Source: Mustelus asterias (taxonomy: Eukaryota). From it: a DNA stretch of 64,000 nucleotides. Numbering within the stretch: position 1 is the stretch's first letter; each line of letters opens with the position of its first letter. Below, piece by piece: positions 11,906 through 41,009 of the stretch. The stretch lies in contig NW_027590175.1 in the NCBI RefSeq assembly GCF_964213995.1, positions 496,001-560,000 on the forward strand. The letters are read 5' to 3'. The position numbers were made by a program, and so were the translations under genes. Under the pieces are notes generated by a model. The model was given only the letters and a program-made list of their open reading frames with translations, did no database searches and had not been told where the DNA came from.

Positions 11906-11950
11906 TAATTCGGGAAGATAACCGTTACTTTTAATCTGATTGCTCAACTT

Positions 11951-15098: not shown

Positions 15099-15884
15099 CT
15101 GACAGCACCTGTAAGGAGAGAAAGGAGCTGACGTTTCGAGTCCAGATGACACTTTAACAGCGTTCATTGTGCAATTGTACTCAGTATTTGTTTCAATATT
15201 TAGTCTCAATGCATGATTTAACACATATGTATTCATTGAATTGAATGTCCCTGAAATTGAATATCATAGAATTGCAAATATAACGGACCAACAAGAATCG
15301 CGTCACCGGGTAATATAGATCACAATTTTGAGATTGACCACAGCGAACTACATTTAAACAAAGTGAACTACATTTAAATGGACGAGATTGAAGAATTATC
15401 TGTTATTGACACTTGAGTCATTTTAATTCTGGGCGTGAAACTTTCAGGCGGATAAATTCCGGTCATTTAAATGAAAGTCCAGTAGATCCGCACTGAGTCT
15501 CGATTTCCTCATCTGAGTGTTTTTCCCCCCTATTTCTTTGTTTTGAAGAACAATTTAATAAATATTCTTCTGGGAAATGTGCGCCATTCACTTGCCGTTC
15601 ACTTTCAGTATCACTTGTGTCAGTCCCCTGGAGCACATACTACCATTCGAAAAGTTCCAGATGGTGATTAGCTACGTTAATCTGCACCTATAAACTCTTT
15701 ACATTCTGTTGCAGACTGAACGTGATGCGAATATGTGCACAGTTCAAAATCGAAATGTTTCTTTCCTGTCAGTTCGTCAAAAAGCAATCAACATTCTTAT
15801 TTTACAGGAATCATTTGAGGCCGAGGTCAGAGCAAAGATCATATGGCTGCAATATCAAGATTCGGATAATGTTCAGCAACGAAG

Positions 15885-17378
15885 GTCTAATACAGATAGG
15901 AAATATACAGGAAATGGCAGAACCCTTAAGAGTATTGATAGGCAAAGGGATCTTGGTGTACAGGTACATAGGTCACTGAAAGTGGCAATGTAAGTGGAGA
16001 AGGTTGTCAAGAATGCATACGGCATGCTTGCCTTCATCGGCCGGGGCATTGAGTTTAAAAAATGGCAAGTCATATTGCAGCTTTATAGAACCTTAGTTAG
16101 AACATAGAACATTACAGCGCAGTACAGGCTCTTCGGCCCTCGATGTTGCGCCGACCAGTGGAACCAATCTAAAGCCCCTCTAATCTACAATATTCCAATA
16201 TCATCCATATGTTTATCCAATAACCATTTGAATGCTCTTAATGTTGACGAGTCCACTACTGCTGCAGGCAGGGCATTCCACGCCATTACCACTCTCTGAG
16301 TAAAGAACCTACCTCTAACATCTGTCCTATATCTCTCACCCTTCAATTTAAAGCTATGTCCCCTCGTGCAAGCCATCGTGGTCCGAGGAAAAAGGCTCTC
16401 ACTATCCACCCTACCTAATCCTCTGATCATCTATTATGCCTCTATTAAGTCACCTCTTAACCTTCTCTCGAACGAAAACAACCTCAAGCCCCTCAGCCTT
16501 TCCTCATACGATTTTCCAACCATACCAGGCAACATCCTGGTAAATCTCCTCTGCACCCTTTCCAACACTTCCACATCTTTCCTATAATACGGCGACCAAA
16601 ACTGTACGCAATACTCCAAATGCGGCCACACCAGAGTTTTGAACAGTTGCAGCATGACCTCCTGGCTCCGAAACTCAATCCCTCTACCAATAAAAGCTGA
16701 CACACCGTACGCCTTCTTAACAACCCTATCAACCTGGGTGCCAACTTTCAGGGATCTATGCACATGGACACCTCTGTTCATCCACACTACCAAGTATCTA
16801 ACCATTAGCCCAGTACTCTGTGTTACTGTTGGGCCACACTTGGAATGTAGTGTTCAATTCTGGTCGCCACACTACCAGAAGGATGTGGAGGCTTTGGCGA
16901 GGGTACAGAAAAGATTTCCCAGGATGTTGCCTGGTATGGAGGACAGTAGCTATGAGGAGAGGTTGGAGAAACTTGGTTTGTTCTCACTGGAGTTTGAGGG
17001 GAGACCTGATAGAAGTCGACATGATTGTGAGAGGCATGGAGAGAGTGGATAGTCAGAAGCTTTTTCCCATGGTGGAAGAGTCAATTACTAGGGGACATCT
17101 GTTTAAGGTGCGAGGGGCAATGTTTAAATGAGATGTACGAGGCAGATCTTTTACACAGAGAGTAGTGGGTGCCTGGAACTCGTGGCCGGGGGAGGTAATG
17201 GAAGCGGATATAGTCGTGACTTCTAAGGGGCGTCTTGACAAGTACATGAATAGGATGGGAATAGTGGGATATGATCCCCGGAAGGGTAGGGTGTTTTAAT
17301 GAACTCGGGCAGGATGGTCGGTGCAGGCTTGGAGGGCCGAAGGGCTGTTCCTGTGCTGTAATTTTCTTAGTTCTTTGT
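15885..17378. mobile_element. Nested CR1s: plus-strand CR1 (15885-16100, 16828-17378) split by a minus-strand CR1 (16101-16827)
   Basis: Host reads ...ccttagttag | ...gttgggccacacttgg across the insert. Confidence 0.9.
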
Positions 17379-17426
17379 ACTGAAATCATACAGATTTCCA
17401 CACCCTGAATTAGAAAACTTAATGAA

Positions 17427-17499
17427 TATTTCTGCCCGGTTTTGAACTGGGAACTTTGCGCGTGTGAGGTGAACGTGATAACCACTACACTACAGAAAC
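17427..17499 (-). pseudogene. tRNA-Val(CAC) pseudogene, unit 6
   Basis: rc gtttctgtagtgtagtggttatcacgttcacctcacacgcgcaaag... Confidence 0.8.
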
Positions 17500-17507
17500 G
17501 GGTGACA

Positions 17508-18315
17508 GCATGGTTTCCCCAATGTACCATGCCTCGGGACATCCTTTCTTGCAGCGTATCAGGTAGACAACGTTGGCCGAGTTGCAAGAGTAGGTACCAT
17601 GTACCTGGTAGATGGTGTTCTCACGTGAGATGATGGCATCCGTGTTGATGATCCGGCACGTCTTGCAGAGGTTGCTGTGGCAGGGTTGTGTGGTGTCGTG
17701 GTCACTGTTCTCCTGAAGGTTGGGGAAACCATGCAGACGCTACGACAACGGATGAATGAACACCGCTCGACAATCACCAGGCAAGACTGTTCTCTTCCTG
17801 TGGGGGAGCACTTCAGCAGTCACGGGCATTCAGCCTTGGATCTTCAGGTAAGCGTTCTCCAAGGCGGCCTTCACAACACACGACAGCGCAGAGTCACTGA
17901 GCAGAAACTGATAGCCAAGTTCCGCACACATGAGGACGGTCTAAACCGGGATGTTGGATTTATGTCACATTATCAGTAACCCCCACAGCTTGACTCCTGG
18001 ACTTGCACAATTTCACAAGCTGTACTGTCTGGAGACAATACACATCTCTTTAACCTGTGTTGAATGCTCCCTCCACCCACATTGTCTGTGCATTTAAGAC
18101 CTGGCTAGCTGTAGAGATTTGCATTCTAATCAGTGTTCTGTAATTTGATTTCTGTGTCTGTGCACTGTTTGAGAACAGAGACCACTCCATCTGACGAAGG
18201 AGCATTGCTCCGAAAGCTTATGGTATTTGCTACCAAATAAACCTGTTGGACTTTAACCTGGTGTTGTGAGACTTCTTACTGTGCTTACCCCAGTCCAACG
18301 CCGGCATCTCCACAT
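17508..18315 (+). mobile_element. Penelope-like retroelement: GIY-YIG endonuclease end with inverted 5' part, plus pLTR and tail
   Basis: Minus 17508-17718 encodes CHSNLCKTC..NVVYLIRC..WYIGETM; plus 17720 onward continues GETMQTLRQRMNEH..HF..H..EQKLI..GLN. Confidence 0.9.
18187..18223 (+). ncRNA. Minimal type I hammerhead ribozyme in Penelope pLTR
   Basis: CCAT-CTGACGA-A-GGAGC/att/GCTCC-GAAAGCTT-ATGG. Confidence 0.7.
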
Positions 18316-18459
18316 ATTGTCCTGATAACAGGTCTATCATTTTGAACTTCTGCGTGAAATCCGCCAGTCACCATATTCATTCCCCATTTCCATCTCGAGG
18401 TGATTATTCCGTTATTGTTACTCCTTCTAACCCGCTGCGTGTCTGTTGTCTATTTTCAG

Positions 18460-18762
18460 ACATGAGTAACGGTGACTTAGTGTCCCAGTCAGAAATAGCA
18501 GTTGAAGCAGCAGAGGGTGAAGATTCAGCAATATCCTGCATTTGTTCGGTACCCAGTTCAACTACGCAACATTACCTGTTCTGGTATCGCCAGTATACAC
18601 ACCGAGCTCCTCATTAATTGCTCAGAGCCGCTAATTTACCGATACGGCTCCAAGTTTTGAACACTTCAACGGGAATCTCAACCTGAAACAAAGCACTTTT
18701 CACTTGCCCATGAAAGATTTGAAGGTGACACTCAGCGCCGAGTATTACTGTGCACTGAGAGC
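18460..18762 (+). pseudogene. TCR alpha/delta-type V segment pseudogene (V1)
   Basis: Acceptor ttttcag; DLVSQ..ISC..YLFWYRQY..; in-frame TAA at 18615-18617 and a frameshift; second frame ends HFNGNL..STFHL..LKV..SAEYYCALR. Confidence 0.9.
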
Positions 18763-18801
18763 CACAGTGAATGAGGCTCCCGCGGGCCTCATACAGAATC
18801 T
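18763..18801 (+). promoter_or_regulatory. 23-RSS of V1
   Basis: CACAGTG + 23 nt + ACAGAATCT. Confidence 0.9.
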
Positions 18802-19371
18802 GGCACAGGTCGATAATCAATGATTCATTGTCAGGACAACACATGGGGTTAAACATCAGAGAATAATTACTCATAGTGAGCGTGACAATACAGCCCCGTC
18901 TGAGTGTTTTCCCTCACTGAGGTTAATGATTGTCACTGTTGGAAATTTGACATATGTTTACTCATATTACTATCAGATCAGGTCCAATCGTTCCCCGATC
19001 CCATTGACACAAACCCGCAGATCTCCCAGGTGAACAATGTCATCAATCTGTACTTTAAATGTTCCAGAGCAGTTAACTGTGTGACAGACCACACCTTTCA
19101 AAAGTGATCAAATATCAAAGGCAGACTCAGAGTTGTCACATGTTGAAGTCGCTGGGTTAAAATTATTGACTGTAACATGTGTACTTTATAAACAAAAGCC
19201 CCCAGTTGCAAACAGTCGAGGTAACAATATTGGACGGATATTTTGCTGGTGCTTAAAGTCCACAAATGCTGATGCGGTGAGTTATTTGAACAATTTCGGC
19301 TTTCACTCGAGGTGTCAGAACTGCTTTGTACAAAGTTAAACAATTTTTATTCTGCTGATTGCTCCCGTGCA

Positions 19372-19460
19372 GGCTCGTTGGTCTAGGGGTATGATTCTCG
19401 CTTAGGGTATCTAGCCCATTAGCATGCGAGAGGTCCGGGGTTCAAATCCCGGACGAGCCC
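19372..19460 (+). tRNA. tRNA-Pro(AGG) with 17-nt intron at 37/38 (19408-19424)
   Basis: Exons match the vertebrate Pro body (GGCTCGTTGGTCTAGGGGTATGATTCTCGCTTAGGG / TGCGAGAGGTC..TTCAAATCCCGGACGAGCCC); one G-G mismatch in T stem; T-run downstream. Confidence 0.85.
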
Positions 19461-19789
19461 CTCATTTGTTTCTTTTTGACCAAGTCAGATATTGTGATTT
19501 GTTTCAGGTTCAAAGGTGGGATGGCTTTCTGCTGACTGGCTACGAAAACGAATCAAAGAGGCACAGAGTTTTACAGCACGGAAAGAGTCCACTCGGTCAC
19601 CCACATGGCAGGCGCGGACACCCATCATGTCCGCGCCTGCCATGTGACATCTGGACGGGAAACGTTAGTTCTGATTCTCGCTCCACAGATAGTGCCAGAA
19701 ATACTGACATAACCCAGTATTTTCTGTTTTTATTTCAGATTTCGAAAGTCCGCTGTGTGCTGCATTATATAAGACTTTATGTTTTGGGT

Positions 19790-20585
19790 TGACAAGTGGC
19801 AAGTAACATTCGCGCCGCACAAATACGAGACAATGTCCATCTCCAATAAGAGAAAATCTAATCTAACCACCGCCTCTTGACAGTCAATAGTTTTTCCATC
19901 ACTGAATCCCCCATTGTTAACATCCTTACGGTTACCATTGGCCAGAAACTCAATTGGACTCGCCACATAAACACAGTGGCTACAAGAGCAGGTCAGAGGC
20001 CAGGAATACTGCGGCGAATACCTCACCTCCTGATTCCCCAGAGTCTGTCCACCATCTACAAGTCAGGAGCGTGATGGAATCTTCCCACCTCGCCTGGATG
20101 GGTGCAGCGCCAACAACACTCAAGAAGATTGACATCATCCAGGACGAAGCAGCTCGCTTGATTGGCACCAGATCCACAAGCATTCAATCCCACCACAACC
20201 GATACTCAGTAGCAGCGATGTGTATCTAAAAGATACACAGCAGCAATTCACCAAAGCTCCTTAGACAGCACCTCCGAAACCCACGACCACTTCCATCCAG
20301 AAGGAAAAGGGTAGTAGACACATGGGAACATCACCCCCTGAAAGTTCTCCTCCAAGTCACTCAACATCCTGACTTGGAATTATATTAAGAAGTTTAACAA
20401 CACCAGGTTAAAGTCCAACAGGTTTATTTGGTAGCAAAAGCCACACAAGCTTTCGGAGCTGCAAGCCCCTTCTTCAGGTGAGTGGGAACTGTGTTTACAC
20501 AGTTAAACACAGTAAGTTACTGTGTTTACCCCAGTCCAACGCCGGCATCTCCACATCATGACTTGGAATTATATTGCCATTCCTT
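19790..20585 (+). mobile_element. CR1-group LINE 3' fragment containing a Penelope terminal insert (20387-20558)
   Basis: LGVTI.QKLNW..HIN-like and IYK.QVRS motifs; insert flanked by duplicated tgacttggaattatatt. Confidence 0.8.
20444..20480 (-). ncRNA. Minimal hammerhead ribozyme, second copy
   Basis: rc CAC-CTGAAGA-A-GGGGC/ttgca/GCTCC-GAAAGCTT-GTG. Confidence 0.7.
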
Positions 20586-20684
20586 CGCAGGGTCTTATTC
20601 TGTGGTGTACTCATTTTCTGATTTAGTGCGTACCTCACCCTGAGGCCGTGAACCGCAAAGTATTTTCTCATTTCTCATTTCTGT

Positions 20685-21430
20685 CATCTCTCCCTCAATG
20701 TCAACAAAACGGAGATTGTCATTGACTTCAGAAAGCGTAGAGGAGAACATGCCCCTCTCTCCATCAAAGGGGACGAAGTAGAAAGGGTCGAGAGCTTCAG
20801 GTTTTTAGGTCTCCAGATCACCAACAACCTGTCCTGGCCTCCCATGCCGACACTATAGTGAAGAAAGCCCATCAACGCCTCTACTTTCTCAGAAGGCTTA
20901 GGAAATTTGACATGTCAGCTACGACTGTCACCAAGGTTTACAGGTGCACTATCGAAAATATCCTTTCTAGTTGTATCACAGCTTGGTGTGTCTCCTGCTC
21001 TGCCCAAGACCGCAATAAACTACAAAGGGTCGTGAATGTAGCCCAATCCATCACTCAAACCAGCCTCCCATCCATTGATTCTGTCTACACTTCCTGCTGC
21101 CTCGGCAAAGCAGCCAGCATAGTTAAAGACCCCGCGCACCCCGGACATTCTCTCTCCCACCTTCTTCCTTCGAGAGAAAGATACAGAAGTCTGAGGTCAC
21201 GTACTAGCCGACTCAAGAACAGCTTCTTCCCTGCTGCCATCATACTTTTGAATGGACATTACCTTGCATTAAGTTGATCATCCTCTACACCCTGATAATG
21301 ACTGTAATACCACATTCTGCACTCTCCCGTTTCCTTCTCTATGAACAATACGCGTTGTCTGTATAGCGCGCAAGAAAAAATGCTTTTCACTGTATACTAA
21401 TACATGTGACAATAATAAATAATACCAAAT
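20685..21430 (+). mobile_element. Rex1/Babar-type LINE 3' fragment
   Basis: KKAHQRLYFLRRLRKF..YRCTIE..L..CITAW..RLKNSFFP. Confidence 0.8.
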
Positions 21431-21699
21431 CATATCGTTTCATTTCTCCTGACTTCCAGACTATTCCTGTTGTTACATTTCCTCCCTCCTGAGTTTCAGT
21501 CGTTTCAAATTCCCACATTTTTCACCTTTTCCTGTTGTAATGAAAGGCCATGGATGTAAAAGATGAGCGTTGTTTCCCTGTCCACAAATTCTGCCTGAAT
21601 TCCTAAGTTTCTGCAGCATCTTCCGCCTTCGCTGCAGTTATCTGATCGGCTTTGAATGGCCAAGAGAGCATATTTTCTTTCAATCAGTGGCTGCTTATA

Positions 21700-21780
21700 G
21701 GCTCCTTGGTGTAGGGGTATGAATCGCATTTTGGTATGCCTTAACCACCGAGATCCCGAGTTGAAATCCGAGACTAGCCC
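21700..21780 (+). pseudogene. Decayed tRNA-Pro with over-long anticodon region (probable intron remnant)
   Basis: ggctccttggtgtaggggtatgaatc...gttgaaatccgagactagccc, 81 nt. Confidence 0.6.
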
Positions 21781-22129
21781 TACTGTTTCTTCTTTTCCTT
21801 GTTACGTCAAAACATCGGAAGCAGGAGTAGGTCATTGGAACATGATCTCCCTTTCATTATCGTCATGCCTGATAATCAAATTCAATACCCTGATCCGCCC
21901 TTTAGCCCCAAGAGCTATATTAAACTTCTCTTGAAATCATAGTGTTTGGCCTCAACTACTTTCTGTGGGAGTGAACTCTGCAGATTCACCACGCTCTGGC
22001 TGAAGGAATTCTCATCATCTCAGCTGTTATCCTGAAACTATAATCCCTAGTTCTGGACTCCCCACTAACGAGAACATTCTTTCTGAATCTACCCTGTTTC
22101 ATCCGGTCAGAATGTTATAAGGTTCCATT

Positions 22130-22450
22130 AGAATCATAGAATCCCTGCGGTACAAAACGAGTCCAATTCGGCCCATCAAGTCTGTACGGACCGCAATCCC
22201 ATCCAGGCCCCACTCCTGTAACGCCATGCATTCACCCTGCTAATCCCCCTGACACTAGGGCCAATTTAACACGGCCAATCAACATTAGCCGCACGTCTTT
22301 GGACAATGGGAGGAAACCGGAACACCCGGAGGAAACCCATGCAGATACGGGGAGAATGTGCAAACTCCACACAGACAGTGACCCGATGCCAGATTTGAAC
22401 CTCGGACCCTGGCGTTTTGAGGCAGCAGTGCTAACCAATGTGCCACCCAA
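22130..22450 (-). mobile_element. HE1-like SINE
   Basis: V core and CR1-type tail (tagaatcatagaatccc). Confidence 0.85.
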
Positions 22451-22534
22451 AACATATCTGCCCAGAAATAGCCAGGATTAGTTGGCAAGAAATGCATTTG
22501 CCAATCTTGGACACCTAAGTGTTAAAATAAGCCG

Positions 22535-22608
22535 CATCCCAGAAGGGACTCGAATACACACTCCCTGGTTTAGGAAGCCAGTGGCCTTACGCATTAGGTC
22601 ACTGGAAC
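22535..22608 (-). pseudogene. tRNA-Arg(CCT) pseudogene
   Basis: rc gttccagtgacctaatgcgtaaggccactggcttcctaaaccaggga...ttcgagtcccttctggg. Confidence 0.75.
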
Positions 22609-23349
22609 TATAGGTGAGCTACTGCTGCAGCTTGAAAAAGCTGTATATCTCCATCCACATAGACAGTGACTTACCCCAGAATCGAAACCAGGTCCCTGGT
22701 ATTGTGAGACAGCAGAACTAACCACTGTGTCGCCCTCTCCCACGAATATTTTATCAGATTTCATGAGCTGCAGATGTTGTTTCTTTCTTTGCATTGCAGA
22801 CTTTGGGATTGGTTCGCATGGGGTTTCGTTTGAGAATCTGAGCACAAACTGTGAGAAATATATCAACACAACACAATCGGTCGAAAATAAATATATGATC
22901 AACAGGGTTGGCTATGTAACTTGACGTTCCATTTTATCTACATTCACCTCTTCAGCTGGCCCCATCATTATGGTTTCAGTGAGCTGCCTGGATGTTTCTT
23001 TTTGTTCATGTGGGTGTCGCTGGCTAGATCAGCATGCACTGCCCATCAGTATTTATCCTTGAGAAAGTAATGGTGAGCTGCATTCTTGAAACGTTGCAAT
23101 CCATTTGTACAGGTACTCTTACAGTGCTGTTGGGGAGGGAATTCCACGAATTTGTCCCAATGACAGTGAAGGAACGGCGATATATTTCCAAATCAGAATG
23201 CTGAGGGACTTGAGGGTGGTGTTGGCTGTGTGGCGTTGGAGTGGGGGGAGAGGGGGGGGTTGGCGGGGGAGCTGCTAGGTGGAAGCGGTCATGGGTTTGG
23301 AAGATGCTGTCTAAAGTGCCTTTGGTGGATTCCTGCATCATGCAGACAA

Positions 23350-25085
23350 GTGGAGAGATACTCAATGTTTTTTTTTGCATCCGTATTTACTGAGGAAACG
23401 GGCATGGAGTCTACAGAAATAGGGCAAACAGGTAGGGAGGTCATGGAACCTTTACAGATTAAAGGGGAGGAGGTGCTCGCTGTCTTGAGGCAAATCAGAG
23501 TGGATAAATCCCCAGGACCGGACAGGGTATTCCCACGGACCTTGAGGGAAGCTAGTGTTGAACTTGCAGGGGCCCTGGCAGACATATTTAAAATGTCAGT
23601 ATTCACGGGGGAGGTGCCGGATGATTGGAGGGTGGCTCATGTTGTTCCGTTGTTTAAATAATGTTTCAAAAGAAATCCGGGAAATTAGAGGCCAGTAAGT
23701 TGACGTCGGTGGTGGGTAAGCGATTGGAAGGTGTGATAGGGGATAGGATCTACAAATATTTGGATACACAGGGACTTATTAGGGAGAGTCAACATGGCTT
23801 TGTGCGTGGTAGGTCATGTTTGACCAATCTGTTAGAGTTTTTCGAGGAGGTTACCAGGAAAGTGGATGAAGGGAAGGCGGTGGATGTTGTCCACCTGGAT
23901 TTCAGCAAGGCCTTTGACAAGGTCCCTCATGGGAGGTTAGTTAGGAAGGTTCAGTCGCTAGGTATACATGGGGAGGTAGTAAATTGGATTCGACACTGGC
24001 TCAATGGAAGAAGCCAGAGAGTGGTTGTGGAGGATTGCTTCTCTGAGTGGAGGCCTGTGACTTGTGGTGTGCCACAGGGATCGGTGTTGGGTCCATTGTT
24101 GTTTGTCATCTATATCAATGATCTGGATGATAATGTGGTAAATTGGATCAGCAAGTTTGCTGATGATACAAAGATTGGGGGTGTAGTGGACAGTGAGGAA
24201 GGTTTTCAAAGCTTGCAGAGGGATTTGGACCAACTAGAAAAATGGGCCGAAAAATGGCAAATGGAATTTAACGCAGACAAGTGTGAGATATTGCACATTG
24301 GAAGGACAAACCAAAGTAGAACGTACAGAGTAAATGGTAGGACTCTGAAGAGTGCAGTTGAACAGAGGGATCTGGGAATACAGGTACAGAATTCCCTAAA
24401 AGCGACGTCACAGGTGGATAGGGTCGTAAAGAATGCCTTTGGTACATTGGCCTTTATAAATCGGAGTATCGAGTATAAAAGTTGGAGTGTTATGGTAAGG
24501 TTATATAAGGCATTGGTGAGGCTGAATTTGGAGTATTGTGTACAGTTTTGGTCACCTAGTTACAGGAAGGATGTAAATAACGTTGAAAGAGTGCAGAGAA
24601 GGTTCACAAGGATGTTGCCGGGACTTGAGAAGCTGAGTTACAGAGAGAGATTGAATAGGTTGGGACTTTATTCCCTGGAGCGTAGAAGATTGAGGGGAGA
24701 TTTGATAGAGGTGTATAAGATTTTGATGGGTATAGATAGAGTGAATGCAAGCAGGCTTTTTCCGCTGAGGCTAGGGGAGAAAAAACCAGAGGGCATGGGT
24801 TAAGGGTGAAAGGAGAAAAGTTTAAAGGGAATATTAGGGGGAGCTTCTTCGCGCAGAGTGGTGGGAGTGTGGAATGAGCTGCCGGATAAAGTGGTAAATG
24901 TGGGGTCACTTTTAACATTTAAGAAAAACTTGGACGGGTTCATGGATGAGAGGGGTGTGGAGGGATTTGGTACAAGTGCAGGTCAGTGGGACTAGGCAAA
25001 AAATGCTTCGGCACAGACAAGAAGGGCCAAAAGGCCTGTTTCTGAGCTGTAATTTTCTATGGTTTTCTATGGTTTTCTATGGTTC
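23350..25085 (+). mobile_element. CR1 LINE RT region
   Basis: KSPGPD..QHGF..DFSKAFD..GVPQGSVLGP..FADD; tail (ggttttctat)n. Confidence 0.95.
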
Positions 25086-25142
25086 AGACTCACTCTGGTC
25101 ACAATGTTGGCCTAACGCTCTGCTATTTTGTGAGGCTCTGAC

Positions 25143-25181
25143 AGTTTTTGTACAGGTTCAGCCCAGCTCTGTTTCTCTATG
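25143..25181 (-). promoter_or_regulatory. Defective 23-RSS of V2
   Basis: Heptamer CATAGAG (critical CAC broken) + 23 nt + ACAAAAACT. Confidence 0.85.
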
Positions 25182-25485
25182 GGTCTCAATGCGCAGTAAC
25201 ACACGCCAGAGTCTGCCAGCTCCGTTTTAGACACTTTCAGCGGGACGGTGCGGGTTGTATAATTGAGCTCCGCTAAAAAACGGTCCTCTGGGAATCTCTC
25301 TGTGTTCTCGCTGACTCTATGTCTCGTCAGCAGGAACTCCATGGTCCCGCTGGGATATTGACGGTACCAGAATAAGTAAGGGGTGTTGCTTGTAGCTGTA
25401 TAATCACAGAGCAACTGAACATCATCTTCTTCAGTGACGGTGACTGCAGCCGCTGTTTGTGAAACAGAATCTCCTCCACAGTGTC
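25182..25485 (-). CDS. TCR alpha/delta-type V exon (V2), open frame but probably non-rearranging
   Basis: Acceptor ttccag; GHCGGDSVSQT..VQLLCDY..PYLFWYRQYP..RF..VPLKVSKTELADSGVCYCALR; candidate leader MLLFCCVIYL at 25660-25631 runs into TGA with no clean donor. Confidence 0.9.
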
Positions 25486-25834
25486 CTGGAAGAACGCAAA
25501 GAAATATCAAGCTAAACAGTGCGGCTTCGCATTAAACATCACATCCCCCCCTTCCCCCCCCACCCCCCCCCTCTCCCCCACCCCCTCCCCCACTCCCCAG
25601 AATCTGCTGTCATCTTGAGCAATAATCTCAGAGATAAATCACACAGCAGAACAGAAGCATATATTTTTCACAGTTCAGTGGCTGGAAGGGGAAGGTGCTT
25701 GTGGTGATTAAATAACATTTCCACCATAAACACCGTACGTTCTAACGAGATCAGTTCCATGTCTTCAGTTCCTGTAACTGGAAACTGCTCACGGTCTGTC
25801 TATTTGAAGTTTGATGTTTGCCAAAGTTATTCGC

Positions 25835-25842
25835 TGATGTCA
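25835..25842. promoter_or_regulatory. CRE-like TGATGTCA upstream of V2
   Basis: Matches the core of the CRE-like decamer known from TCR V promoters; ~175 bp upstream of the candidate ATG. Confidence 0.4.
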
Positions 25843-27589
25843 GAAGAGCTTGAATCCCAGTCCAAACTATTCTCCCTCGTTCCCTTGGGGAAATGTGTCG
25901 AATCCCAACAGTGTTCAGCGTTGAGGCCAGCGAGAACGGGATAACTTTTCCATGTTGAGATCAATACATTCCCTGATCATCTACCCCTACCCCTTTGTAT
26001 TGAGCGAACCGCCTGACTGAATATGGTATGTGGCAATGATGTATCACACAGAATTGAGCAACTTGTGAACCTACCGGTTAAAAGAGTCGCCGCTGTGAGG
26101 AATAAATACAGAGTAACAGGAGATATGTTTGCAGAGAGCTCGCGGCAGATTTGGCCAGAAGGGGTTGAAGCTGAAATTGTTTCCGTCAACAGTTGGGAAG
26201 AAGTTGAGTCATATCCGGGCCCCTGTTGATTGGTTCGCTGCTGAAAACATCATCAGATAACATCCAATCGGCTTCAAGCTCCCTTGTTCTCCAATTCAAG
26301 CAATGATCTCACAGCTCTTTTATCTCCAATTCAACCCATCGGTGAAGAGACGAAAGAAACAAAGTAAATTTGGTCAACCCACGACAGGGGATTACTTTTC
26401 CCTTGAGGCGTCATTTCAGGCACTGACAGGTCACCTGAGTTTTGATGGCTCCGTTAAGGCTGCAGAGTGATAATATTCAACATTGCAGCAACATGACAAG
26501 CAGTTTGTGATCAATCAAATTTGGGATAGCCGCTATGGTGCGGGGAGGATGAATGTTGAGCTGAAATATCTACTTCATAAGAAGTGACAAAACAATGAAT
26601 GGTCTGAGATATTTCCATATGATGTTCCCTCAATTTGTAAATTTGCAGTGTGTGAAATCTTCTTTCAGAGTGGAGGAAAACTTGCCTCCCCATTGGACTG
26701 CTGATCCAAACAGTGCCAAACAGAAAATAGCAGCAAAGATGAATATCTAAATGAAATCTCTGCTAAAACAGCACAGGTGAGATTGATCAGAGTTAGAACA
26801 GCACAGGAAAGCTGTGGGCAGAAGCTGCCATCGGCAGCGTGGTCACGGGTAGGATTTATCTGCAAAGAGCTGAACTCAATAACAATGTTACTTTGGAAAT
26901 TCTATAACTTTGCTTCTCTGTAAGAGCGGTAGCTGAATTTTCATTCCAGACTGCGGCCACCAGGCTCGCACCAAGAGTGTGAGGGTTAGTAAACGATTCA
27001 ATACAAAGCGAAATCTTTATCAGTCATGTGGATGGAAAGTGGGACCAAATAGCTGAGTAGCAGATTGGAGAGTTTCTGAATTAATGTACAAGGTGACAGA
27101 AAAAGCACTAAATGTTTACGTTTAAGTCTGAGAAATGGAAATGGGCATAGTTTTCAAAAATCAGTAAAGCCAAGAGCAGTCAGGAACAAATAGGCAGAGA
27201 AAGGTGTGGAAAACCACTTAATGTATCTCAGATCGATTGAGCAATCCTTTATCAATTAGGTTGATTTGCCATGTTAAATTAACCCGACTGTAAGGGGGAT
27301 TAGCAGGGTAAATATGTGGGGTTGCGGCAAGAGGGCCTGTGTTGGATTGTGGTCGACGCAGACTCGATGGGCTGAATGGCCTCCGTCTGCACTGTAGGGA
27401 TTCTATGATTCTACAACTGTAAGTTAAGATTATCAATTAATATAACTGTGCAACTGGACCACACCAGTTGCTGTTTTTTGAGTGTTTTTGTGTTGCAATG
27501 TTAAGAATCTCCGTCACTCTGTGGAAACTGAATTTGCCGTGTGTGTGTGAGCGCACCCTGCTGGGCACTAACTGGAACTGCCAGTGTCG

Positions 27590-28132
27590 GGTTTTTGTAC
27601 CGCATTCGATATATCTCTGCAGCAGTGTGGACTCCATGGCACAGAAATACTGTCGCAAATCAGTGCGTTCATGATCGTTAGCTCGCTAGTATTGTTATTT
27701 TAAAATCAAATTGAGTAGAAAACCGATCATTGATGTCGGTGTTCCTTTGCACATTCTCTCCAATAAGCTGAAACATGTCCACTGGCGCTTTCACAGAGTG
27801 CTGACTGTGCCAATACACAAAAAGATTAGGATAGCTAGTTTCTAAGGCACAGGTTAGTGTCACAGTACTTTCCGCTTTAACGGATATTTCAGGACCCAGT
27901 TGACCCACTTTGTCCTGGTGGCTCCATTCTAACAGGAATAACAACAATAATGACAATCAGAGTCAGCCTCATATTGAGCAATACAATTATCATCTTCACC
28001 ATCACTGTTGTTTTAGCAACAATAACATCTGGGTTGCAGCAGTCAGGAGGAGCATGTAGTTTTACTGGGAAGGAAAAAAACCTGACTGAGGAGTGAGATA
28101 AAGATGAGGGTCTGAGCGAGCCAGTTCTCCAT
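27590..28132 (-). pseudogene. TCR V segment pseudogene (V3) with leader exon and RSS
   Basis: Leader MENWLAQTLIFISLL from 28132; V exon from 27928 WSHQDKVGQ..VTLTC..VYW..DRFS; frameshifts before YFCAME; RSS CACACTG (27623-27629) + 24 nt + ACAAAAACC. Confidence 0.88.
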
Positions 28133-28219
28133 GATCCTCCCTGAGTCTGTAACTCAGCAGTGAGAGAAATCCTCTGTCAGAGACAGAAATACAGATCCCC
28201 GTCCCATTGCACAGCTCAT

Positions 28220-28300
28220 CGAACCAATGAGAGGAATGGCGCAACGTCAGCAATCTGTCCAATCACACAATCGGGTCAGAGTGAGAGCACCAATCGGACG
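28220..28300. promoter_or_regulatory. Candidate V3 promoter: clustered CCAAT boxes and TGACGT half-CRE
   Basis: accaatga, caacgtca, tccaatca and accaatcg within 80 bp upstream of the leader. Confidence 0.45.
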
Positions 28301-29449
28301 CTGTGGGTGGGAATACTGCAGACTCAATATTGAGTGAAGTGTGCGGTGATTCTCAGCTGCACTCAGAACTGTTCGGGCGGAAATAGCGCCAGTTCAATTT
28401 ACAGAAGTCTCTGATCATCCTGCGCCTGCTCATTGTTCAGGTGTCTAACAATAAATAAAGCGACTGCGACATGAAGCAACAAGAATCATAGAATCTTTGA
28501 TTAGCGAATGAGGTCATTCCGCATATCTATGTCTCCTTGGAGGAGTTCTCCAAATCATCCAATTCTCCCTGCAGCTCCATGAAATCTCTATCTCACTAAC
28601 GTTGCTCTAAAGAGTACAGTCCCGGTCTCTATAACCTCACCACAAAACTGAATTTCCTCATCCCTGGACATGATGCTAGGCGAATGATTGAGCGGAGATT
28701 TTAGAAAATATTGTCATTTGGCAGGTGGGGAAAATGGAGATGGAATCAAACCAGAAAACACTGTCAAGCTTTGCGAATCTTTAGAAACTCTTTGGGAACC
28801 AGAACCAGAGGAGATTGAAGGGTGAACTGTCTGACAGTTGGAGGAGAGTTGGATCCCGGTGAATGGATGTGTCTGCAATGGATGGGCTCTGACTGTTAGA
28901 CTTAACTAACCCATTAGAAATCCATTCAATAATTCCATTCTCACAAACTCATTAATTATTCTCTCACACAGTGAGAGAGACAGGGAAAAGCAGCAATCTT
29001 CCAGCCCCCACTCTCCAAAGATCCCCTGCCAGCAAAAAGGACTGGCGACTAAGCTGTTTCTGTTTTCTATGAAATGGTGAAGAGTAAATATTAAATATTT
29101 CGATTGATACCCAATTCAGTTCACATTTAACAATAAACTTGAATTCGGAAACTTCAGAGCAGTGAGTTTTGACAACATTTCTGCCCCGTTTAGCGCCTGA
29201 GACCTGCGCAAATATGAATAGAATGTGATTATCCCTTCAATACACAAAGTCCGCTCAGGGTAAAAGCGACTAGATGGTCAAACAGTGCAGTCTGATTTAA
29301 CTTTATAACCTGATTTGTGGCAGTACATTTCGGCTAAAAAACCTTTTTCATGCGGCAGCGAAATTCATCTTACATTAGAATCAGTAAATGACATTTGTGC
29401 CATTTTTTCTCTTTTACCATGTCTGGGTGGCGAGGGAGGGGGGAGGGTG

Positions 29450-29720
29450 GTTGCACTGTGGAACAGTAGTTAACACTGCCATCTCACAGTGCTAATGATC
29501 GATTCCTGGATTGGGTCTCTGTCTATTTGACGTTTGCACTTTCTCCCCGTGTTTGCATGAGTTTCCTTTGAATCGTCCGGTTTCTTCTCACAGCCGGAAA
29601 GACGTGCTGGTTCGGTGCATTGACCCGAACAACCGCCGGAGTTTGGCGACCAGAGAATTTGACAGTGTCTTCGTTACAGTGTTAATGTAAGCCTTACATG
29701 TGACTAATAAATAAACTTTA
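29450..29720 (+). mobile_element. tRNA-derived SINE (taataaataaac tail type)
   Basis: Same layout as 2281-2590. Confidence 0.75.
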
Positions 29721-29993
29721 TTTTAACTGAGCATTTTGCAGAATATCATTTCACACTTGGGAAGTGCAACTGCAGTTAGACTGAGAGATAATGTTTTCTT
29801 TCAATATTTAATAACAAAAGAAAATGAGGTAACGTTTCCTCACACTGAGAGATGAGTTAGTTAGTTTCCTATTTCACACAGGAAACCTTTCATATGTTAG
29901 GTGAATGTATAAAACACCACACTTCAGAAATTCTGAAGTACAATCAAACTGCACGGTTCGACACTCCAGTCTCTGGCAGAGTTGTAGAGCATC

Positions 29994-30065
29994 GTTTCTG
30001 TCTGTAATAAGTATCACATTCACCTAAACACACGAAAGATTCCCGATTCGGAAACGGGAGGAAAC
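29994..30065 (+). pseudogene. tRNA-Val pseudogene (further minus-strand remnants ~29177-29245 and ~29865-29930)
   Basis: gtttctgtctgtaataagtatcacattcacctaaacacacgaaagattcccgattcggaaacgggaggaaac. Confidence 0.6.
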
Positions 30066-30575
30066 ATTTGTAGATACGTTTCACCTCGGAGTGAGGAAAA
30101 TAGAAATAATTCACGTTTATTGCTGAATATTAGCTGAATACAGTAACTTACACGATGTTACATTTCGCCTTCCCCTCCACATTTCTGTACACACTCAAAC
30201 CCGACAGAATATCTTTAACTGGCTCCCGTTTCCAGCTCTGTCAGTTCAGAAAGCTTCTCTCAAACTTCCACATTCGGGCTTTTTCTTTTGGTCATTCGTG
30301 AAACATTGGCGTCGCTGGCCAACATTTAATGCCCATCCCGAGTTGAGTTGCAAGCATATTGCTGTGGCTCTGGATTCACAAGTAGGCCAGACAAGAACAG
30401 CAGATTTCCTTCCTAAAATACATGAGTGAACCATATGGGTTCCTCCAACAGTCGGAAATTGTTTCATGGTCATCAATGCGAGGTTTTATTTATTGAATTC
30501 AAATTCCACTACCGACCGTAACCGTCCCCAAAATGGTAGCTGGTCAAGCGATAGTAGCACCAACAGCATCTCACG

Positions 30576-30670
30576 TGCTGCAGGTGAGGCTCGAACTCAC
30601 AACCCCGGCATGGCCCGCTGGCTGTACTGCTCTATAAGTACCGCGCGCTAACCGATTGCGCCACTGGAGC
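30576..30670 (-). tRNA. tRNA-Ile(TAT) with 21-nt intron (30612-30632)
   Basis: rc GCTCCAGTGGCGCAATCGGTTAGCGCGCGGTACTTATA[intron]ATGCCGGGGTTGTGAGTTCGAGCCTCACCTGCAGCA; C4-C69 mismatch. Confidence 0.85.
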
Positions 30671-31610
30671 ACTGCGTCAGGCTGATTTTTGTCAGATTAT
30701 TAAAGACTTCTACAGCGTCACCTCCGTTAACAACAGTCATTCGAGGCAACATAGACGGGGAACAAACGCATCAATTATTCTCTCTTCACCAGCTCCACAG
30801 TAAGTGAGACAGGGACAAGCAGCAGCATTTTACCCCGCATTCTCCAATCATCCATCCGCTGCCAGCAGAAAAGCGGCGACTGCCGCTTCAATTAGTGGGT
30901 TACCGCCCATCCCTGGGACAGAAGATTCAACCCCGTTCAAACCTCGCAATACACAGAACACAAGCTCAGCAAAACGTTTATGGATTATATCCCGCTCACT
31001 GAACCTTCGAGTATCATTTAAACAGTATCCGAGTGAGTCACAAACAATATTCAAACCAACTTTCCAAAACGTTTCAGTAGTAGATTCCTCCATTTGATTG
31101 AAAAGCTGAGTGTTGTGAATCTGGAAATGAACACCATGGGGTTTATGTTACCCAAATAATATTAGTCCGTCAGGTTTCCAATTCCATTTGAGTTGTATAT
31201 TGAAGCGAATCTCATTTCAAAATGAGGAGAAAACAAGGAAAATATTAAATCTTGGAACAAATCCTGAGAGAAATGGGTTACAATATTTGGATGCAGGTGC
31301 AGCTGTGAATGGTGTTATTGATGATTGAGTGGAAACTATTGGATCCTTGGGCTTCTGGTGGTCAGTTCCCTTCCCTCCCGTTGAATTCCCCCCTGTGATA
31401 AGAGACATGGATTCATTTTACCTACACGTTCATAGGAAAAAGAGAATAACCAACACACTACAGAAATGCTGCGGGATCAACGTCACCAAAGAGACTTATA
31501 TAGAATTCTAAACGGTGCGGTCATGCTGCAGTTCTGGAACAGGTTTTGTAGAAAGAGAATTGTGCTTATTGACACCTTAGCTTAGAATATCGTTAGCAGT
31601 TGCTGTCTGA

Positions 31611-31684
31611 GTCTCTGTGGCGCAATCGGTCAGCGCGTTCAGCTGTTAACCGGAAGGTTGGTGGTTCGAGACCACCCAGGGACG
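31611..31684 (+). tRNA. tRNA-Asn(GTT), weakened anticodon stem
   Basis: gtctctgtggcgcaatcggtcagcgcgttcagctgttaaccggaaggttggtggttcgagaccacccagggacg; A30-C40 mismatch. Confidence 0.75.
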
Positions 31685-33049
31685 GGTGATTTTACTGTTT
31701 TCTCACCATCTGCATTCATAGGCAAACAGTTGTGTGTTGGCAATGGGTCCGTGGTGGTTCATAAAAAATAGCTCTCAAGTGTTACCGGCTGTACTGTTAT
31801 CTGTTATCACCAACATTATTGAATGACAATTGACTTCAGACATATTACATATAATATTATATACATGCTTCCATTATACCATTAAGCTTAAAAATTAGAA
31901 TGGAAACATTAATTTGTGGCTGAGCATTTGTTCCAATTCCATATCCCTGCTTCCATTCATTCCTGAATAGATCATAAATCTATCCAACCCGAACTGAAAT
32001 GTGTTCAATGATGGAACATCTACAACCCTCTGGCATAGAGAATTCCCCAAATTCACTATCCTTTGAGTGAAGAAATGTCTGCTCCTCGCAGTCTTAAATC
32101 ATCAGCGCCTTATCCTGAGATTGTACCCCCGTGCTTTAGATTCCCGGACCAGGGAAAATAATGTCTCAGCATCCACCCTATCAAACTCATAGAATGATAG
32201 AATCCCTGCAGTTTTTCAATGTTATCTATTCTTTCTCGTTAAAGCTGTTGAGATTTTCCAGCTTTTTCTGTTCTTGATTCAGATTCCAAGATCCTCAGAT
32301 TTTGCTTTTATTTTGTCTAAAATGGGGAGATGCAAACTGAACACACTATTCCAAATGTGGTCTCAACAAAACCCTGAATAACTGTAGCAAGACTTCAAAC
32401 ACTTCAAAACTTAACTCCGTGCTCATGGCTGGAAGGAGAGCGTGACAGTCGATAATTGGCACTGTGTACGTTCCTGCAATCAGGAACTGGATCAGGATGA
32501 TGAGATATCTGTGTCTCCTTATACTGTTATCTCTAAACTCCATCTCCTCTCAATGCCGTGTGTCATACATTCGCTTACCTTGCTTTCCAGGTAAAGATCG
32601 GGTTCACCAACTCTCTGTGTCTGTATCGAGCAGCTAACTGACCCTGGGAAATGGACAATCAGAGGGAGCTGGATGAGAGGCAGCGACAGAAACAGGAAGA
32701 GAAGCGACAGGATAATGTTTCATAAATGAGTTCTGCCAGTTGCTCTCCGTGGTGAATGTCTGCCGTGTGTTACCTTGCAAGTTTCACAGATGCCACAGTG
32801 ATGAGTTTGGTGGGTTTTGGAAATTGAAAGTGCCACATGACCAGCTGCGGGACTATTTCACCTCACGGTCGATTTCATGTTGCAGCTAACAGGTTTCGCT
32901 GTTTTCATTGGCTGAACAGTCCCTTGGGTTCGATCTAAACATGACAATTTAAAGGAGAAACTTGTTTTTTGTGAATAAAGAATCTGAAATAAAAATAAAA
33001 GACAGAAGGCTCATGGATAAATCAATCTTTGAAAGAGTTTAGTCTAGCT

Positions 33050-33121
33050 TCCCTGGTGGTCTAGTGGTTAGGATTCGGCGCTCTCACCGCCGCGGCCCGG
33101 GTTCGATTCCCGGTCAAGGAA
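33050..33121 (+). tRNA. tRNA-Glu(CTC)
   Basis: Matches the vertebrate Glu-CTC consensus except G69>A (C4-A69 mismatch). Confidence 0.85.
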
Positions 33122-33299
33122 AGTAGATTTATTGCTGCGTAAAAATCCTGCGTGACTTCCAGGTTTGTACCAGTTCTGTGAGAATCAGTAGCAGGCAGAT
33201 TTCCTCTTTTGTGTCTGAATTGGAAATGTCACATGTCAAGAAAAAAAAGAGAGAAATAGGATACAAAGCGCTGACGATATAGATGGTGATATACAGGGA

Positions 33300-35392
33300 C
33301 TGGGAACGTCCGACATGTGGAGTTTTTTCAAGGAGCAGCTACTGCGAGTCTGTGATAGGTATGTCCCTGTCAGGCAAGGAGGAATTGGTAGGGAACCGTG
33401 GTGCACCAAAAAAGTTTCTTTGTTGGTTAAAAAGAAAAAGGAGGCTTATGTTCGGATGAGACGTGAGCACTCGGGTAGTGCACTAGAAAGCTTTAGATTG
33501 GCTAGGAGGGAGTTGAAGAGCGAGCTTAGAAGGGCTAAAAGGGGACATGAGAAGACTTTGGCGGATAGGGTTAAAGAGAATCCTAAGGCGTTCTATAGGT
33601 ATGTCAAGAACAGAAGGTTGGTTAGGGCAAGTTTAGGGCCAGTTATAGATGGCAGAGGGAAGTTATGTGTGGAACCGGAGGAGATTGGTGAAGCATTGAA
33701 CCAATATTTCTCTTCGGTGTTCACGCAAGGGGACAAGAATATAGCTGAGGAGGACACTGGGTTGCAGGGGAGTAGAATTGACAGTATTACAGTTGATAAG
33801 GAGGATGTGCAGGATATTCTGGAGGGTCTGAAAATAGATAAATCCCCTGGTCCGGATGGGATTTATCCAAGGATTCTCTGGGAGGCAAGAGAAGTGATTG
33901 CAGAGCCTCTGGCTCTGATCTTCAGGTCGTCGTTGGCCTCTGGTATAGTACCAGAAGATTGGAGGTTAGCGAATGTTGTCCCATTGTTTAAGAAGGGGAA
34001 CAGAGACTTCCCCGGGAATTATAGACCGGTGAGTCTCACTTCTGTTGTCGGCAAGATGTTGGAAAAAATTATAAGGGATAGGATTTATAGTTATTTGGAG
34101 AGTAATGAATTGATAGGTGATAGTCAGCATGGTTTTGTGGCAGGTAGGTCGTGCCTTACTAACCTTATTGAGTTTTTTGAGAAAGTGACCAAGGAGGTGG
34201 ATGGGGGCAAGGCAGTGGACGTGGTATATATGGATTTTAGCAAGGCGTTTGATAAGGTTCACCATGGTAGGCTTCTGCAGAAAATGCAGATGTATGGGAT
34301 TGGGGGTGATCTAGGAAATTGGATCAGGAATTGGCTAGCGGATAGGAAACAGAGGGTGGTGGTTGATAGTAAATATTCATCATGGAGTGCGGTTACAAGT
34401 GGTGTACCTCAGGGATCTGTTTTGGGGCCACTGCTGTTTGTAATATTTATTAATGACCTGGATGAGGGTATAGTTGGGTGGATTAGCAAATTTGCTGATG
34501 ACACCAAAGTCGGTGGTGTGGTAGACAGTGAGGAAGGGTGTCGTAGTTTGCAGGAAGACTTAGACAGGTTGCAATGTTGGGCCGAGAGGTGGCGGATGGA
34601 GTTTAATGCGGAGAAGTGTGAGGTAATTCACTTTGGTAGGAATAACAGATGTGTTGAGTATAGGGCTAACGGGAGGACTTTGAATAGTGTGGAGGAGCAG
34701 AGGGATCTAGGTGTATGTGTACATAGATCCCTGAAAGTTGGGAATCAAGTAGATAAGGTTGTTAAGAAGGCATATGGTGTCTTGGCGTTTATTGGTAGGG
34801 GGATTGAATTTAGGAGTCGTAGCGTTATGTTGCAACTGTACACAACTCTGGTGCGAGCGCACTTGGAGTACTGTGTGCAGTTCTGGTCCCCACATTACAG
34901 GAAGGATGTGGAGGCTTTGGAGAGGGTGCAGAGGAGGTTTACCAGGATGTTGCCTGGTATGGAGGGGAGATCCTATGAGGAGAGGCTGAGGGATTTGGGA
35001 TTGTTTTCGCTGGAAAGGCGGCGGCTAAGAGGGGATCTTATTGAAACATATAAGATGATTAGAGGTTTAGATAGGGTGGATAGTGATAGCCTTTTTCCTC
35101 TGATGGAGAAATCCAGCACGAGGGGGCATGGCTTTAAATTGAGGGGGGTAGTTATAGGACCGATGTCAGGGGTAGGTTCTTTACCCAGAGAGTGGTGAGG
35201 GATTGGAATGCCCTGCCAGCATCAGTTGTAAATGCGCCTAGTTTGGGGGCGTTTAAGAGAGCCGTAGATAGATTCATGGACGAAAAGAAATTGGTTTAGG
35301 TTGGAGGTCACAGTGTTTTTTTTTGTAACTGGTCGGTGCAACATCGTGGGCCGAAGGGCCTGTTCTGCGCTGTAATGTTCTATGTTCTATGT
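33300..35392 (+). mobile_element. Young CR1 LINE, ~2.1 kb, uninterrupted RT domain, 5'-truncated
   Basis: 627-aa ORF with all RT motifs; frameshift only near the C-terminus; (ctatgtt)n tail. Confidence 0.97.
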
Positions 35393-35819
35393 GGGCTAAG
35401 ATCTGGTTGTTGATGGAGTAGATTTTATTGTTTCCACTGACACAAATACCTCGCAGGTCTGGGTCCAAATCTCGGACTCAGTGACAAGAAGACCTTTAAT
35501 TGTAACTCTCCGACCTCCAGTGAAGTGGAGGCAGTTTTCACTCAGAAAGCAGTAACTGTGAGATTAACAGCGCGGGATGGAGAAAGACTCAGTTTGAGCG
35601 GTGACGCTGCTGGAGGAATGGAGAGCTGGAGTTCACCCAGAAAAGTAGCAAAGTTGCTTCTTCTGTACAAACCTCCTTCTGTACAAACAGTGGCCCCCAA
35701 CTTGGGGCTGGAACCCACCGTCCATTAACGCTGATAAGTTAATGTTGATCAGCAGAATTACCACAACATGGTATATCACAGGTTGGTACTAACACTGCAG
35801 TAAAATTAAATGCAGTAGA

Positions 35820-36130
35820 ATAGGACGGCATGGTTTCACAGTGGTTCGCAATGATGCCTCACAGCGCCAGTGGCTCAGGTTAAATTTCTCGGATCACTCT
35901 TTCCGGAGTTTGAACGTTTTCCCCGTGTCTGCGTGGGATTCCTCTGTGTGCTCCGGTTTCCTTTCCAAACATGTGTGAGTTCGGTTGCTTGGCCATGCTA
36001 AATTGACCCGCCTGTCAGCGGGATTATCTGGGTAAATATGTGGGTTTCCGGGAATAGGGCGTGGGTGGGATCGTTGTCGGTGCGCACTCGATGGGCCGAC
36101 CGACCTCCTTCTCTACAATAGGAATTCTCC
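35820..36130 (+). mobile_element. HE1-like SINE
   Basis: ggacggcatggtttcacagtgg head, V core, gatgggccga tail. Confidence 0.8.
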
Positions 36131-36336
36131 GAGAATATCTCATTATTCATTTTGACTTGAGGAACCAAAAGAGGCAATGCAAATACAAATTGTTGTGGGT
36201 AATTGACGGGTTTGTGGAATGGGACGGATTTTTCTCTGTACTGTTGAAACTGGCACCAATATCACTCCTGTTTTCGACCAGGAAGTAATTCCAATTCCAC
36301 TTAAATCATGTGCTGCAAGAAAACAATAAATCTTGA

Positions 36337-36402
36337 TTTCCTGACCAGGAATCGAACCGCTGCGGTGAAAGCGCCACATCCTCACCACGAGATCACCAAG
36401 GA
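36337..36402 (-). pseudogene. tRNA-Glu(TTC) pseudogene (other Glu remnants ~2741-2790, 4735-4795, 38155-38215, 39792-39840, 48910-48957, 49627-49697, 50986-51058)
   Basis: rc tccttggtgatctcgtggtgaggatgtggcgctttcaccgcagcggttcgattcctggtcagg. Confidence 0.75.
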
Positions 36403-36514
36403 AACTGCCTGCAAGTATTTTAATCTATCCGATCCATGCTAACTTGGCGCTTTGTTTCGATTTCAGCATTTTTCTGTATACCAGGGACAAGTCTGTCTGA
36501 CAAGTGCCTCCTGA

Positions 36515-40965: not shown

Positions 40966-41009
40966 ATGCCCTCCTGCAAACCCATCATCGGCTTTAGCAA
41001 AAAAAAGCA

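Follow-up and report, generated by a model that had tools for sequence, protein, structure and literature searches.

T-cell receptor V pseudogenes in a tRNA island of Mustelus asterias as probable passengers of segmental duplication

A stretch of 64,000 nucleotides from the Mustelus asterias assembly GCF_964213995.1 (contig NW_027590175.1, positions 496,001 to 560,000 of the forward strand), hereafter called the window, holds three variable (V) segments of T-cell receptor (TCR) type, V1, V2, and V3, interspersed with tRNA genes. These are dead V segments of the TCR alpha/delta family residing in a tRNA island, likely within the antigen-receptor complex of the animal, and they probably increased in number as passengers when the block was segmentally duplicated, not through a regulatory pairing with tRNA genes. 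Four observations carry this reading: the V segments are broken, the block hosting them is duplicated, the contact of V1 with a tRNA-Pro gene stems from one junction, and V segments at large are not enriched in tRNA genes. The window equals C143:496,001-560,000, C143 being a 941-kb contig, while C71 denotes a 20.4-Mb scaffold and C546, C128, C185, and the like denote other contigs of the same assembly. Feature positions are window coordinates. V1, V2, V3, and the tRNA genes were found at the positions claimed by the original prediction for this DNA.

V segments of the window

V1 (18460..18762, plus strand) is a V pseudogene of the TCR alpha/delta family, non-functional due to an in-frame stop and a frameshift. 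All 15 aligned copies are broken, with the identical stop and frameshift in 11 and further deletions in four, and no leader was found in the 2 kb upstream. The adjoining recombination signal sequence (RSS; 18763..18801, plus strand; CACAGTG-23-ACAGAATCT) has a consensus heptamer and three mismatches in the nonamer. No close intact relative of V1 was found among 86 intact V, the best identity to intact family members being 53-56% on amino-acid level.

V2 (25182..25485, minus strand) is an open, TCR-alpha-like V exon with a Tyr-to-Cys change just before the second conserved Cys. Its RSS (25143..25181, minus strand) combines a 23-bp spacer and a near-consensus nonamer with the heptamer CATAGAG, thus CAT for CAC, compared with CACAGAG in 15 of 17 intact family members. 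The start codon of the leader exon (26075..26126, minus strand) is lost (ATA). The ATG is lost in three of the four block copies in which the leader motif was found; in five further copies the alignment ends before the leader. TCR alpha chains made up nearly all of the best 60 matches of a PDB search with V2 (E 1e-13 to 1e-9), and V2 shares 85% DNA identity with an intact V on C546, a contig also bearing joining (J) segments. A protein search with V2 found no full-length chains, which is weak evidence. Relatives of V2 number at least 150 (the best 150 of 1594 candidates). They occur in either orientation on C71 as well as on dozens of small contigs, and many C1-set exons are found on these sequences too.

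V3 (27630..27928, minus strand) is a V pseudogene with a frameshift and stops in framework region 3, a lesion common to all four copies, and shares 80% DNA identity with an intact V on C546. Its RSS (27590..27629, minus strand) has a spacer of 24 bp, which is typical of its family and likewise present in the intact members. Among intact V, RSS spacer and heptamer proved to be family-specific in general, with 24 bp in this family (8/8) and mostly 22 bp in another (4/7).

None of the three segments combines a leader with ATG, an open frame with both Cys and the Trp, and an RSS starting with CAC. Judged by their sequences, V1, V2, and V3 are all non-functional, and a functional V array in the window was rejected. 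The common lesions of V1 (15/15 copies broken) and V3 (4/4) indicate that these two V segments died before or early in the amplification. Their predicted assignment to the TCR alpha/delta type was borne out by the PDB matches of V2, the identity of V2 and V3 to V on C546, and the amino-acid identity of V1, whereas the prediction of 23-type RSSs applies to V1 and, with a mutated heptamer, to V2, but not to V3. As also predicted, no RSS-flanked J, diversity (D), or constant (C) exon was found within the window. The V exons of the window gave no clear conservation signal.

The complementarity-determining region 1 (CDR1) zone of the dead V1 copies (18541-18576) stands out by 26 changes in 36 bp compared with 5.4 expected, approximately five times the spacer variability, in clustered multi-base patches. 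Conversion, CpG decay, or older diversification could be the cause, CpG accounting for 6 of the 17 variable sites. These patches would suit dead V copies being kept as gene-conversion templates or exchanging sequence with working V. Yet no close intact partner of V1 turned up among the 86 intact V, and germline conversion among the copies or CpG decay could produce a similar picture. Templated diversification of shark TCR is not known to us, and we consider this explanation highly implausible.

Duplication units and V segments at large

The block reaching from V1 to tRNA-Glu recurs in all eight paralogues fetched, mosaic in structure and with 88-98% identity. The unit of V1 and tRNA-Pro exists in at least 40 copies with 92-100% identity (the best 40 of 235 candidates), a copy number that may be inflated, as small contigs are possible haplotype duplicates. 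Duplication units carrying RNA polymerase III (Pol III) genes, as originally proposed, are hence present. The tRNA-Pro(AGG) gene (19372..19460, plus strand) begins 570 bp after the V1 nonamer, in accordance with the predicted distance. Alignments of V1-family relatives without tRNA stop at 19063-19172 and that of a tRNA-Pro locus without V begins at 19278; the contact between both modules is therefore one junction, located in the interval 19172..19278 given by the alignment limits of the relatives. On C71, a V1 remnant lies beside six of eight Pro(AGG)-centred tiles and none of 13 Pro(TGG/CGG) tiles, which points to one ancestral contact.

We propose that the antigen-receptor complex would be a mosaic of immunoglobulin M (IgM) miniclusters, V arrays, zinc-finger arrays, and tRNA islands, in which occasional rearrangements would have brought a V module and a tRNA module together. 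The V would have been dead already or have died early, and the joined unit would then have been copied tens of times. Transcription and purifying selection may have persisted for some tRNA genes (Pro, Glu), with the V drifting meanwhile.

The relation between tRNA genes and V segments at large was evaluated on tiles of C71, the tile samples being small and many tiles being copies of one unit. tRNA calls were made with ARAGORN and Rfam, and calls of unknown anticodon were removed before counting. Twenty V-centred tiles, placed on 21 of the 23 C71 matches of the V2 family (the other two being copies of the window's block), contained 54 V and two decayed tRNA calls. With the two block copies included, tRNA was present in 4 of 22 V-centred tiles and in 5 of the 27 systematic tiles, which were taken from 4-17 Mb (p=1.0). 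Fields of intact V, the first 260 kb of which hold 59 intact V, yielded only one ARAGORN call in 320 kb compared with 10 in 270 kb (p=0.004). Rfam matches in 15 tiles per class amounted to zero in V-centred, two in intact-V, and nine in systematic tiles. Relics were counted with a BLAST library of tRNA-like loci built from C143 tiles, which favors the tRNA families of these tiles. With relics included, intact-V fields remained poor (8/320 kb compared with 20/270 kb, p=0.007) and the V-centred rate equalled the regional rate (13/200 kb compared with 20/270 kb, p=0.86). In addition, 140 kb around the J cluster of C71 contained no tRNA-like locus. A tRNA-Ala call in the J cluster was rejected as a regulatory tRNA, its sequence being the head of a short interspersed element (SINE).

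These results give no support to the proposed role of Pol III genes in locus accessibility, with intact-V fields being tRNA-poor and V-centred tiles not being enriched. The original prediction had named two findings that would speak against it, namely functional V genes elsewhere lacking a tRNA association and the three V being isolated orphons. Given the tRNA-poor intact-V fields and the unenriched V-centred tiles, the first largely describes what was found; the second does not.

Several observations weigh against the V segments being mere passengers of duplication. The best evidence of this kind is a second, independent junction (C143:816,900), at which a decayed tRNA-Gln pair lies between two intact V, though there the tRNAs are the dead partner. 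In this unit (C143:816,537-818,230) the two intact V are convergent, their RSS being separated by the tRNA-Gln pair and a SINE; the pair is located 240-410 bp past these RSS. Twelve long copies of the unit exist, several on contigs with intact V. Its V module and its tRNA module each occur alone too. With relics included, tiles with tRNA lean towards V (8/20 or 10/22 compared with 6/27), a non-significant difference (p=0.21 and 0.13). The C128 copy of V2 retains the ATG, and the changes in V2 (12 non-synonymous, 8 synonymous, p=0.12) make residual selection possible. The 40 bp directly past the V1 nonamer (18802-18841) show zero changes compared with six expected in 10 non-redundant copies (p=0.0025, the best of 24 bins); no CTCF motif was obvious there by eye. 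The tRNA-Ile and tRNA-Asn families have raised variability in the flanks, with bodies not conserved above them. Lastly, C143 is assembled apart from C71 in spite of their common duplication units, and its physical linkage to C71 is presumptive.

The second junction is also the main argument for an alternative in which tRNA genes or TFIIIC sites located past V segments would form barriers or control accessibility in V(D)J recombination, the V-tRNA units being kept for this purpose. Two independent junctions place a tRNA a few hundred bp past an RSS (570 bp in the window, 240 bp at C143:816,800 in the second unit), the second one involving intact V in 12 long copies, and tRNA relics do occur in the intact-V fields, at the eight per 320 kb given above. 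Nonetheless, each unit has one dead partner, the V in that of the window and the tRNAs in the second. An ARAGORN tRNA lies within 3 kb of 1 of 84 intact V compared with 7 of 60 broken V, repeated units being counted; the 84 exclude two intact V of the second unit, and including them the count is 3/86. Moreover, ten intact V lie upstream of J segments in the 120 kb of C546 read, without any tRNA call. We therefore regard such a function as very unlikely and retain the reading of the V segments as duplication passengers.

Composition and activity of the tRNA island

The in-window part of the tRNA island (1187..51060) comprises 24 tRNA-like loci detected by BLAST, mostly relics, and the island extends past both window ends to about 460,000-586,000 of C143 (126 kb, 54 tRNA-like loci). 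An intron of 17 nt interrupts the tRNA-Pro(AGG) gene at the canonical site (19409-19425). Both ARAGORN and Rfam called tRNA-Ile(TAT) (30576..30670, minus strand), with a 21-nt intron and an acceptor-stem change in the window copy, as well as tRNA-Asn(GTT) (31611..31684, plus strand) and tRNA-Glu(CTC) (33050..33121, plus strand). The predicted tRNA list thus stands for Pro, Ile, Asn, and Glu, whereas the degenerate tRNA-Val(CAC) (17427..17499, minus strand; ARAGORN, Rfam 42.6 bits) lies just left of the range given for it and tRNA-Arg(CCT) (22535..22608, minus strand) is a relic called by ARAGORN only at -ps90. The lowered-threshold ARAGORN output of 129 calls was mostly noise, and a long-intron tRNA-Met call by ARAGORN (9204-10471) was disregarded.

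Within 264 kb of C143 we counted 18 ARAGORN calls and 56 tRNA-like loci; the island that includes V1, V2, and V3 accounts for 54 of the loci. This call density exceeds the genome background beyond chance, since 18 background tiles (180 kb) gave zero calls and three relics. In comparison with tRNA-rich parts of C71 (10 calls in 270 kb), there is no excess beyond chance (p=0.13). Genome-wide, the exact Ile(TAT) pattern had 38 matches and the exact Glu(CTC) pattern 53, in each case with 31 on C71 or contigs with V/C1-set matches; for the intron-bearing Pro pattern (196 matches), this holds for 61 of the first 100. C71 alone hosts 29 intron-bearing Pro (among the matches listed), seven Ile(TAT), and seven Glu(CTC), compared with 13, 4, and 10 on all large chromosomes. 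A further tRNA compartment, distinct from this one, is marked by histone genes (C85, C102, C103, C130, and others). A tRNA cluster of the histone type was rejected for C71 and C143, neither having a histone match among the best 150 of 730 candidates.

Changes were counted along a tree of the tRNA-Pro family with 10 non-redundant copies (14 aligned; one further copy with decayed tRNA left out), taking the expectation from the spacer. The exons showed five changes compared with 10.8 expected, while the intron had 17 compared with 2.6 and the inner 5' flank (20 bp upstream) 20 compared with 3.0. In the tRNA-Glu family, the body had three changes compared with 8.8 expected and the 5' flank 16 compared with 4.9. 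A conserved body next to a hypervariable inner flank and intron is a mark of active, transcribed tRNA genes according to the text of PMC6130373 available to us. With cloverleaf, A and B boxes, conserved body, and hypervariable inner flank and intron, the Pro and Glu families present the features of active Pol III tRNA genes and, as far as sequence can tell, carry the mutation signature of transcribed genes. Conversion among tRNA copies could mimic this signature. Private changes are present in each of the Pro, Ile, Asn, and Glu copies of the window, and RNA folding did not discriminate between the tRNA genes.

This signature is of relevance for another alternative, which sees the tRNA genes as the driver: dosage selection, or Pol III-linked breakage and recombination, would seed the duplications that spread V and IgM clusters. 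The hypermutated flanks suggest transcription in the germline, the tRNA is no more than 100-200 bp away from the Pro junction, and the 20.4 Mb of C71 compare with all large chromosomes in Pro, Ile(TAT), and Glu(CTC) copies as stated above. The loci of the island are, however, mostly relics (18 ARAGORN calls among 56 loci), 18 of the 20 V-centred tiles, and hence many duplicated V units, lack any tRNA call, and three IgM C-exon tiles were read without one. A driving role of the tRNA genes is thus unlikely, and duplication with the V segments as passengers remains the preferred reading.

Several further observations concern the tRNA genes as such. tRNA-Pro with a canonical intron of 13-18 nt, comprising all three anticodons, accounts for the 196 pattern matches mentioned, compared with 10 intronless ones. 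Intron-bearing tRNAs in human are those for Tyr, Ile, Leu, and Arg, and we found no account of a vertebrate intron-bearing tRNA-Pro in the literature searched, which covered few subscription papers. Dispersed tRNA-Pro copies on C4, C11, C12, and C17 share just the intron-bearing gene plus a few bases of flank; a SINE head follows directly after three of the four, and the intron of the C4 copy is that of the window's gene. By their structure, these copies are likely retroposed pre-tRNAs. A degenerate tRNA-Pro-like relic (21700..21780, plus strand; ARAGORN at low threshold) with a damaged B box had one change in 81 bp compared with 7.9 expected (four non-redundant copies). A tRNA-Gln-type gene (40254-40325, plus strand) with a clean cloverleaf (Rfam 69 bits) bears the ochre-reading anticodon TTA; this variant has a single match in the genome and is thus probably a private mutation. 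A near-perfect palindrome of 300 bp (4943-5244, 93% self-complementary) is located 40 bp upstream of tRNA-Thr(AGT). Finally, 6108-15883 consists of several diverged tandem units of 0.7-1.6 kb, each with a tRNA-Val gene or relic, a pattern that reads as local tandem expansion of tRNA-Val.

The antigen-receptor complex

On C143, C exons of IgM type are present at 273-275, 714, and 796 kb, together with a V-set exon at 781 kb, the IgM label being based on reading translated exons. C71 carries C1-set exons from 1.6 to 13.5 Mb, and zinc-finger arrays were present in 10 of 40 systematic C71 tiles. At C71:18,374,550-18,419,700, a search by 12-RSS pattern revealed 33 J-like segments bearing 12-RSS, with a C1-set exon after them. 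This is probably a TCR alpha J-C unit, its alpha identity being suggested by position; a Pfam DUF1968 search found no TCR alpha C. No V was present in the 54 kb upstream of this J cluster, while C546 has intact V approximately 75 kb upstream of similar J; the 120 kb read of this contig hold 10 intact V ahead of 12 J-like segments. Motif searches in C546:30-150 kb found neither D nor delta C; IgW, IgNAR, UrIg2, and the TCR delta D-J-C were not searched specifically. None of 28 proteasome matches fell on C71 or C143. A large-exon proteasome-subunit gene is located at C185:264,814-267,781, on a contig also having C1-set and V-set exons, and may be the PSMB5 marker of the complex.

In all, C143 likely belongs to the elasmobranch antigen-receptor complex (AgRC). 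Of the J and C genes for which the original prediction suggested a check of the flanking scaffold, a J-alpha-type cluster and a C exon are located on C71, a separate sequence with units in common with C143. Of the alternative it had offered, an orphon V graveyard, the graveyard part fits. Isolated orphons were rejected, given the IgM-type exons on C143 and the recurrence of the units along C71, which holds the J cluster and C exon. TCR V pseudogenes and orphons are as a class disrupted V exons whose RSS are decaying and which lie apart from J and C. V1, V2, and V3 share these traits but differ in that no move to another chromosome was seen, close copies lying on the J-cluster scaffold, 2-14 Mb away.

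As described in the accessible text of Flajnik et al. 2025 (PMC12227049), the AgRC comprises IgM miniclusters, a TCR alpha J-C unit, and TCR alpha/delta-type V between immunoglobulin heavy chain (IgH) clusters over megabases, with V exons in both orientations and some of them pseudogenes. The linkage of IgH miniclusters to TCR alpha/delta-type V is found here too (C143, C71). In contrast to that description, tRNA islands and zinc-finger arrays are interleaved here and V-tRNA blocks form duplication units; the word tRNA does not occur in the main text of PMC12227049. Elasmobranch tRNA loci are, by the text available of the Squalomix study (10.1101/2025.06.08.657570), very many, often intron-bearing, clustered on few chromosomes, and linked to histone genes. 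Our loci are likewise abundant, clustered, and intron-bearing, whereas the histone-tRNA contigs are separate from C71 and C143; neither TCR nor immunoglobulin is mentioned in the text of that study. From the portions accessible of two further sources, immune multigene families share a duplication-prone region with tRNA clusters in the human extended major histocompatibility complex (MHC), for which hitch-hiking was proposed (PMC2776167), and tRNA clusters, immune families, and multi-zinc-finger genes occur together on the long arm of zebrafish chromosome 4 (10.1101/022061). Immune families and tRNA clusters in a duplication-prone region are thus a common trait; unlike in those systems, the family concerned here is that of rearranging V and IgM clusters, and the mixing is at kilobase scale. 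No account of tRNA genes inside Ig/TCR loci was found in the literature searched, which included few subscription papers and no bioRxiv supplements. The tRNA content of the complex, a major and apparently histone-free tRNA reservoir, seems to be undescribed in the literature searched; the figures of the Squalomix study and the supplement in PDF form to PMC12227049 may bear on this novelty.

A broader idea would be that the complex is the main histone-free tRNA reservoir of the animal, hosting most copies of several isoacceptors including the intron-bearing tRNA-Pro. Germline transcription and dosage selection of the tRNA genes would then seed duplications that scatter V and multiply IgM miniclusters. 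This link would perhaps be ancestral and homologous to the tRNA cluster near TRA/TRD at human 14q11, which the literature search did not confirm. We consider this scenario rather unlikely.

The mixing of V and tRNA genes itself would be a by-product with little bearing on the control of V(D)J recombination, and annotators should expect V exons beside tRNA genes in the complex to be mostly dead. What may matter is the layout on chromosome level, as the region thought to be the origin of all shark antigen receptors appears as a duplication mosaic with tRNA islands. This layout has precedents in the human extended MHC and on zebrafish chromosome 4, and was not encountered for an Ig/TCR locus in the accessible parts of the literature searched. 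It offers a testable handle on the scattered IgH clusters and V segments of sharks, which vary in number.

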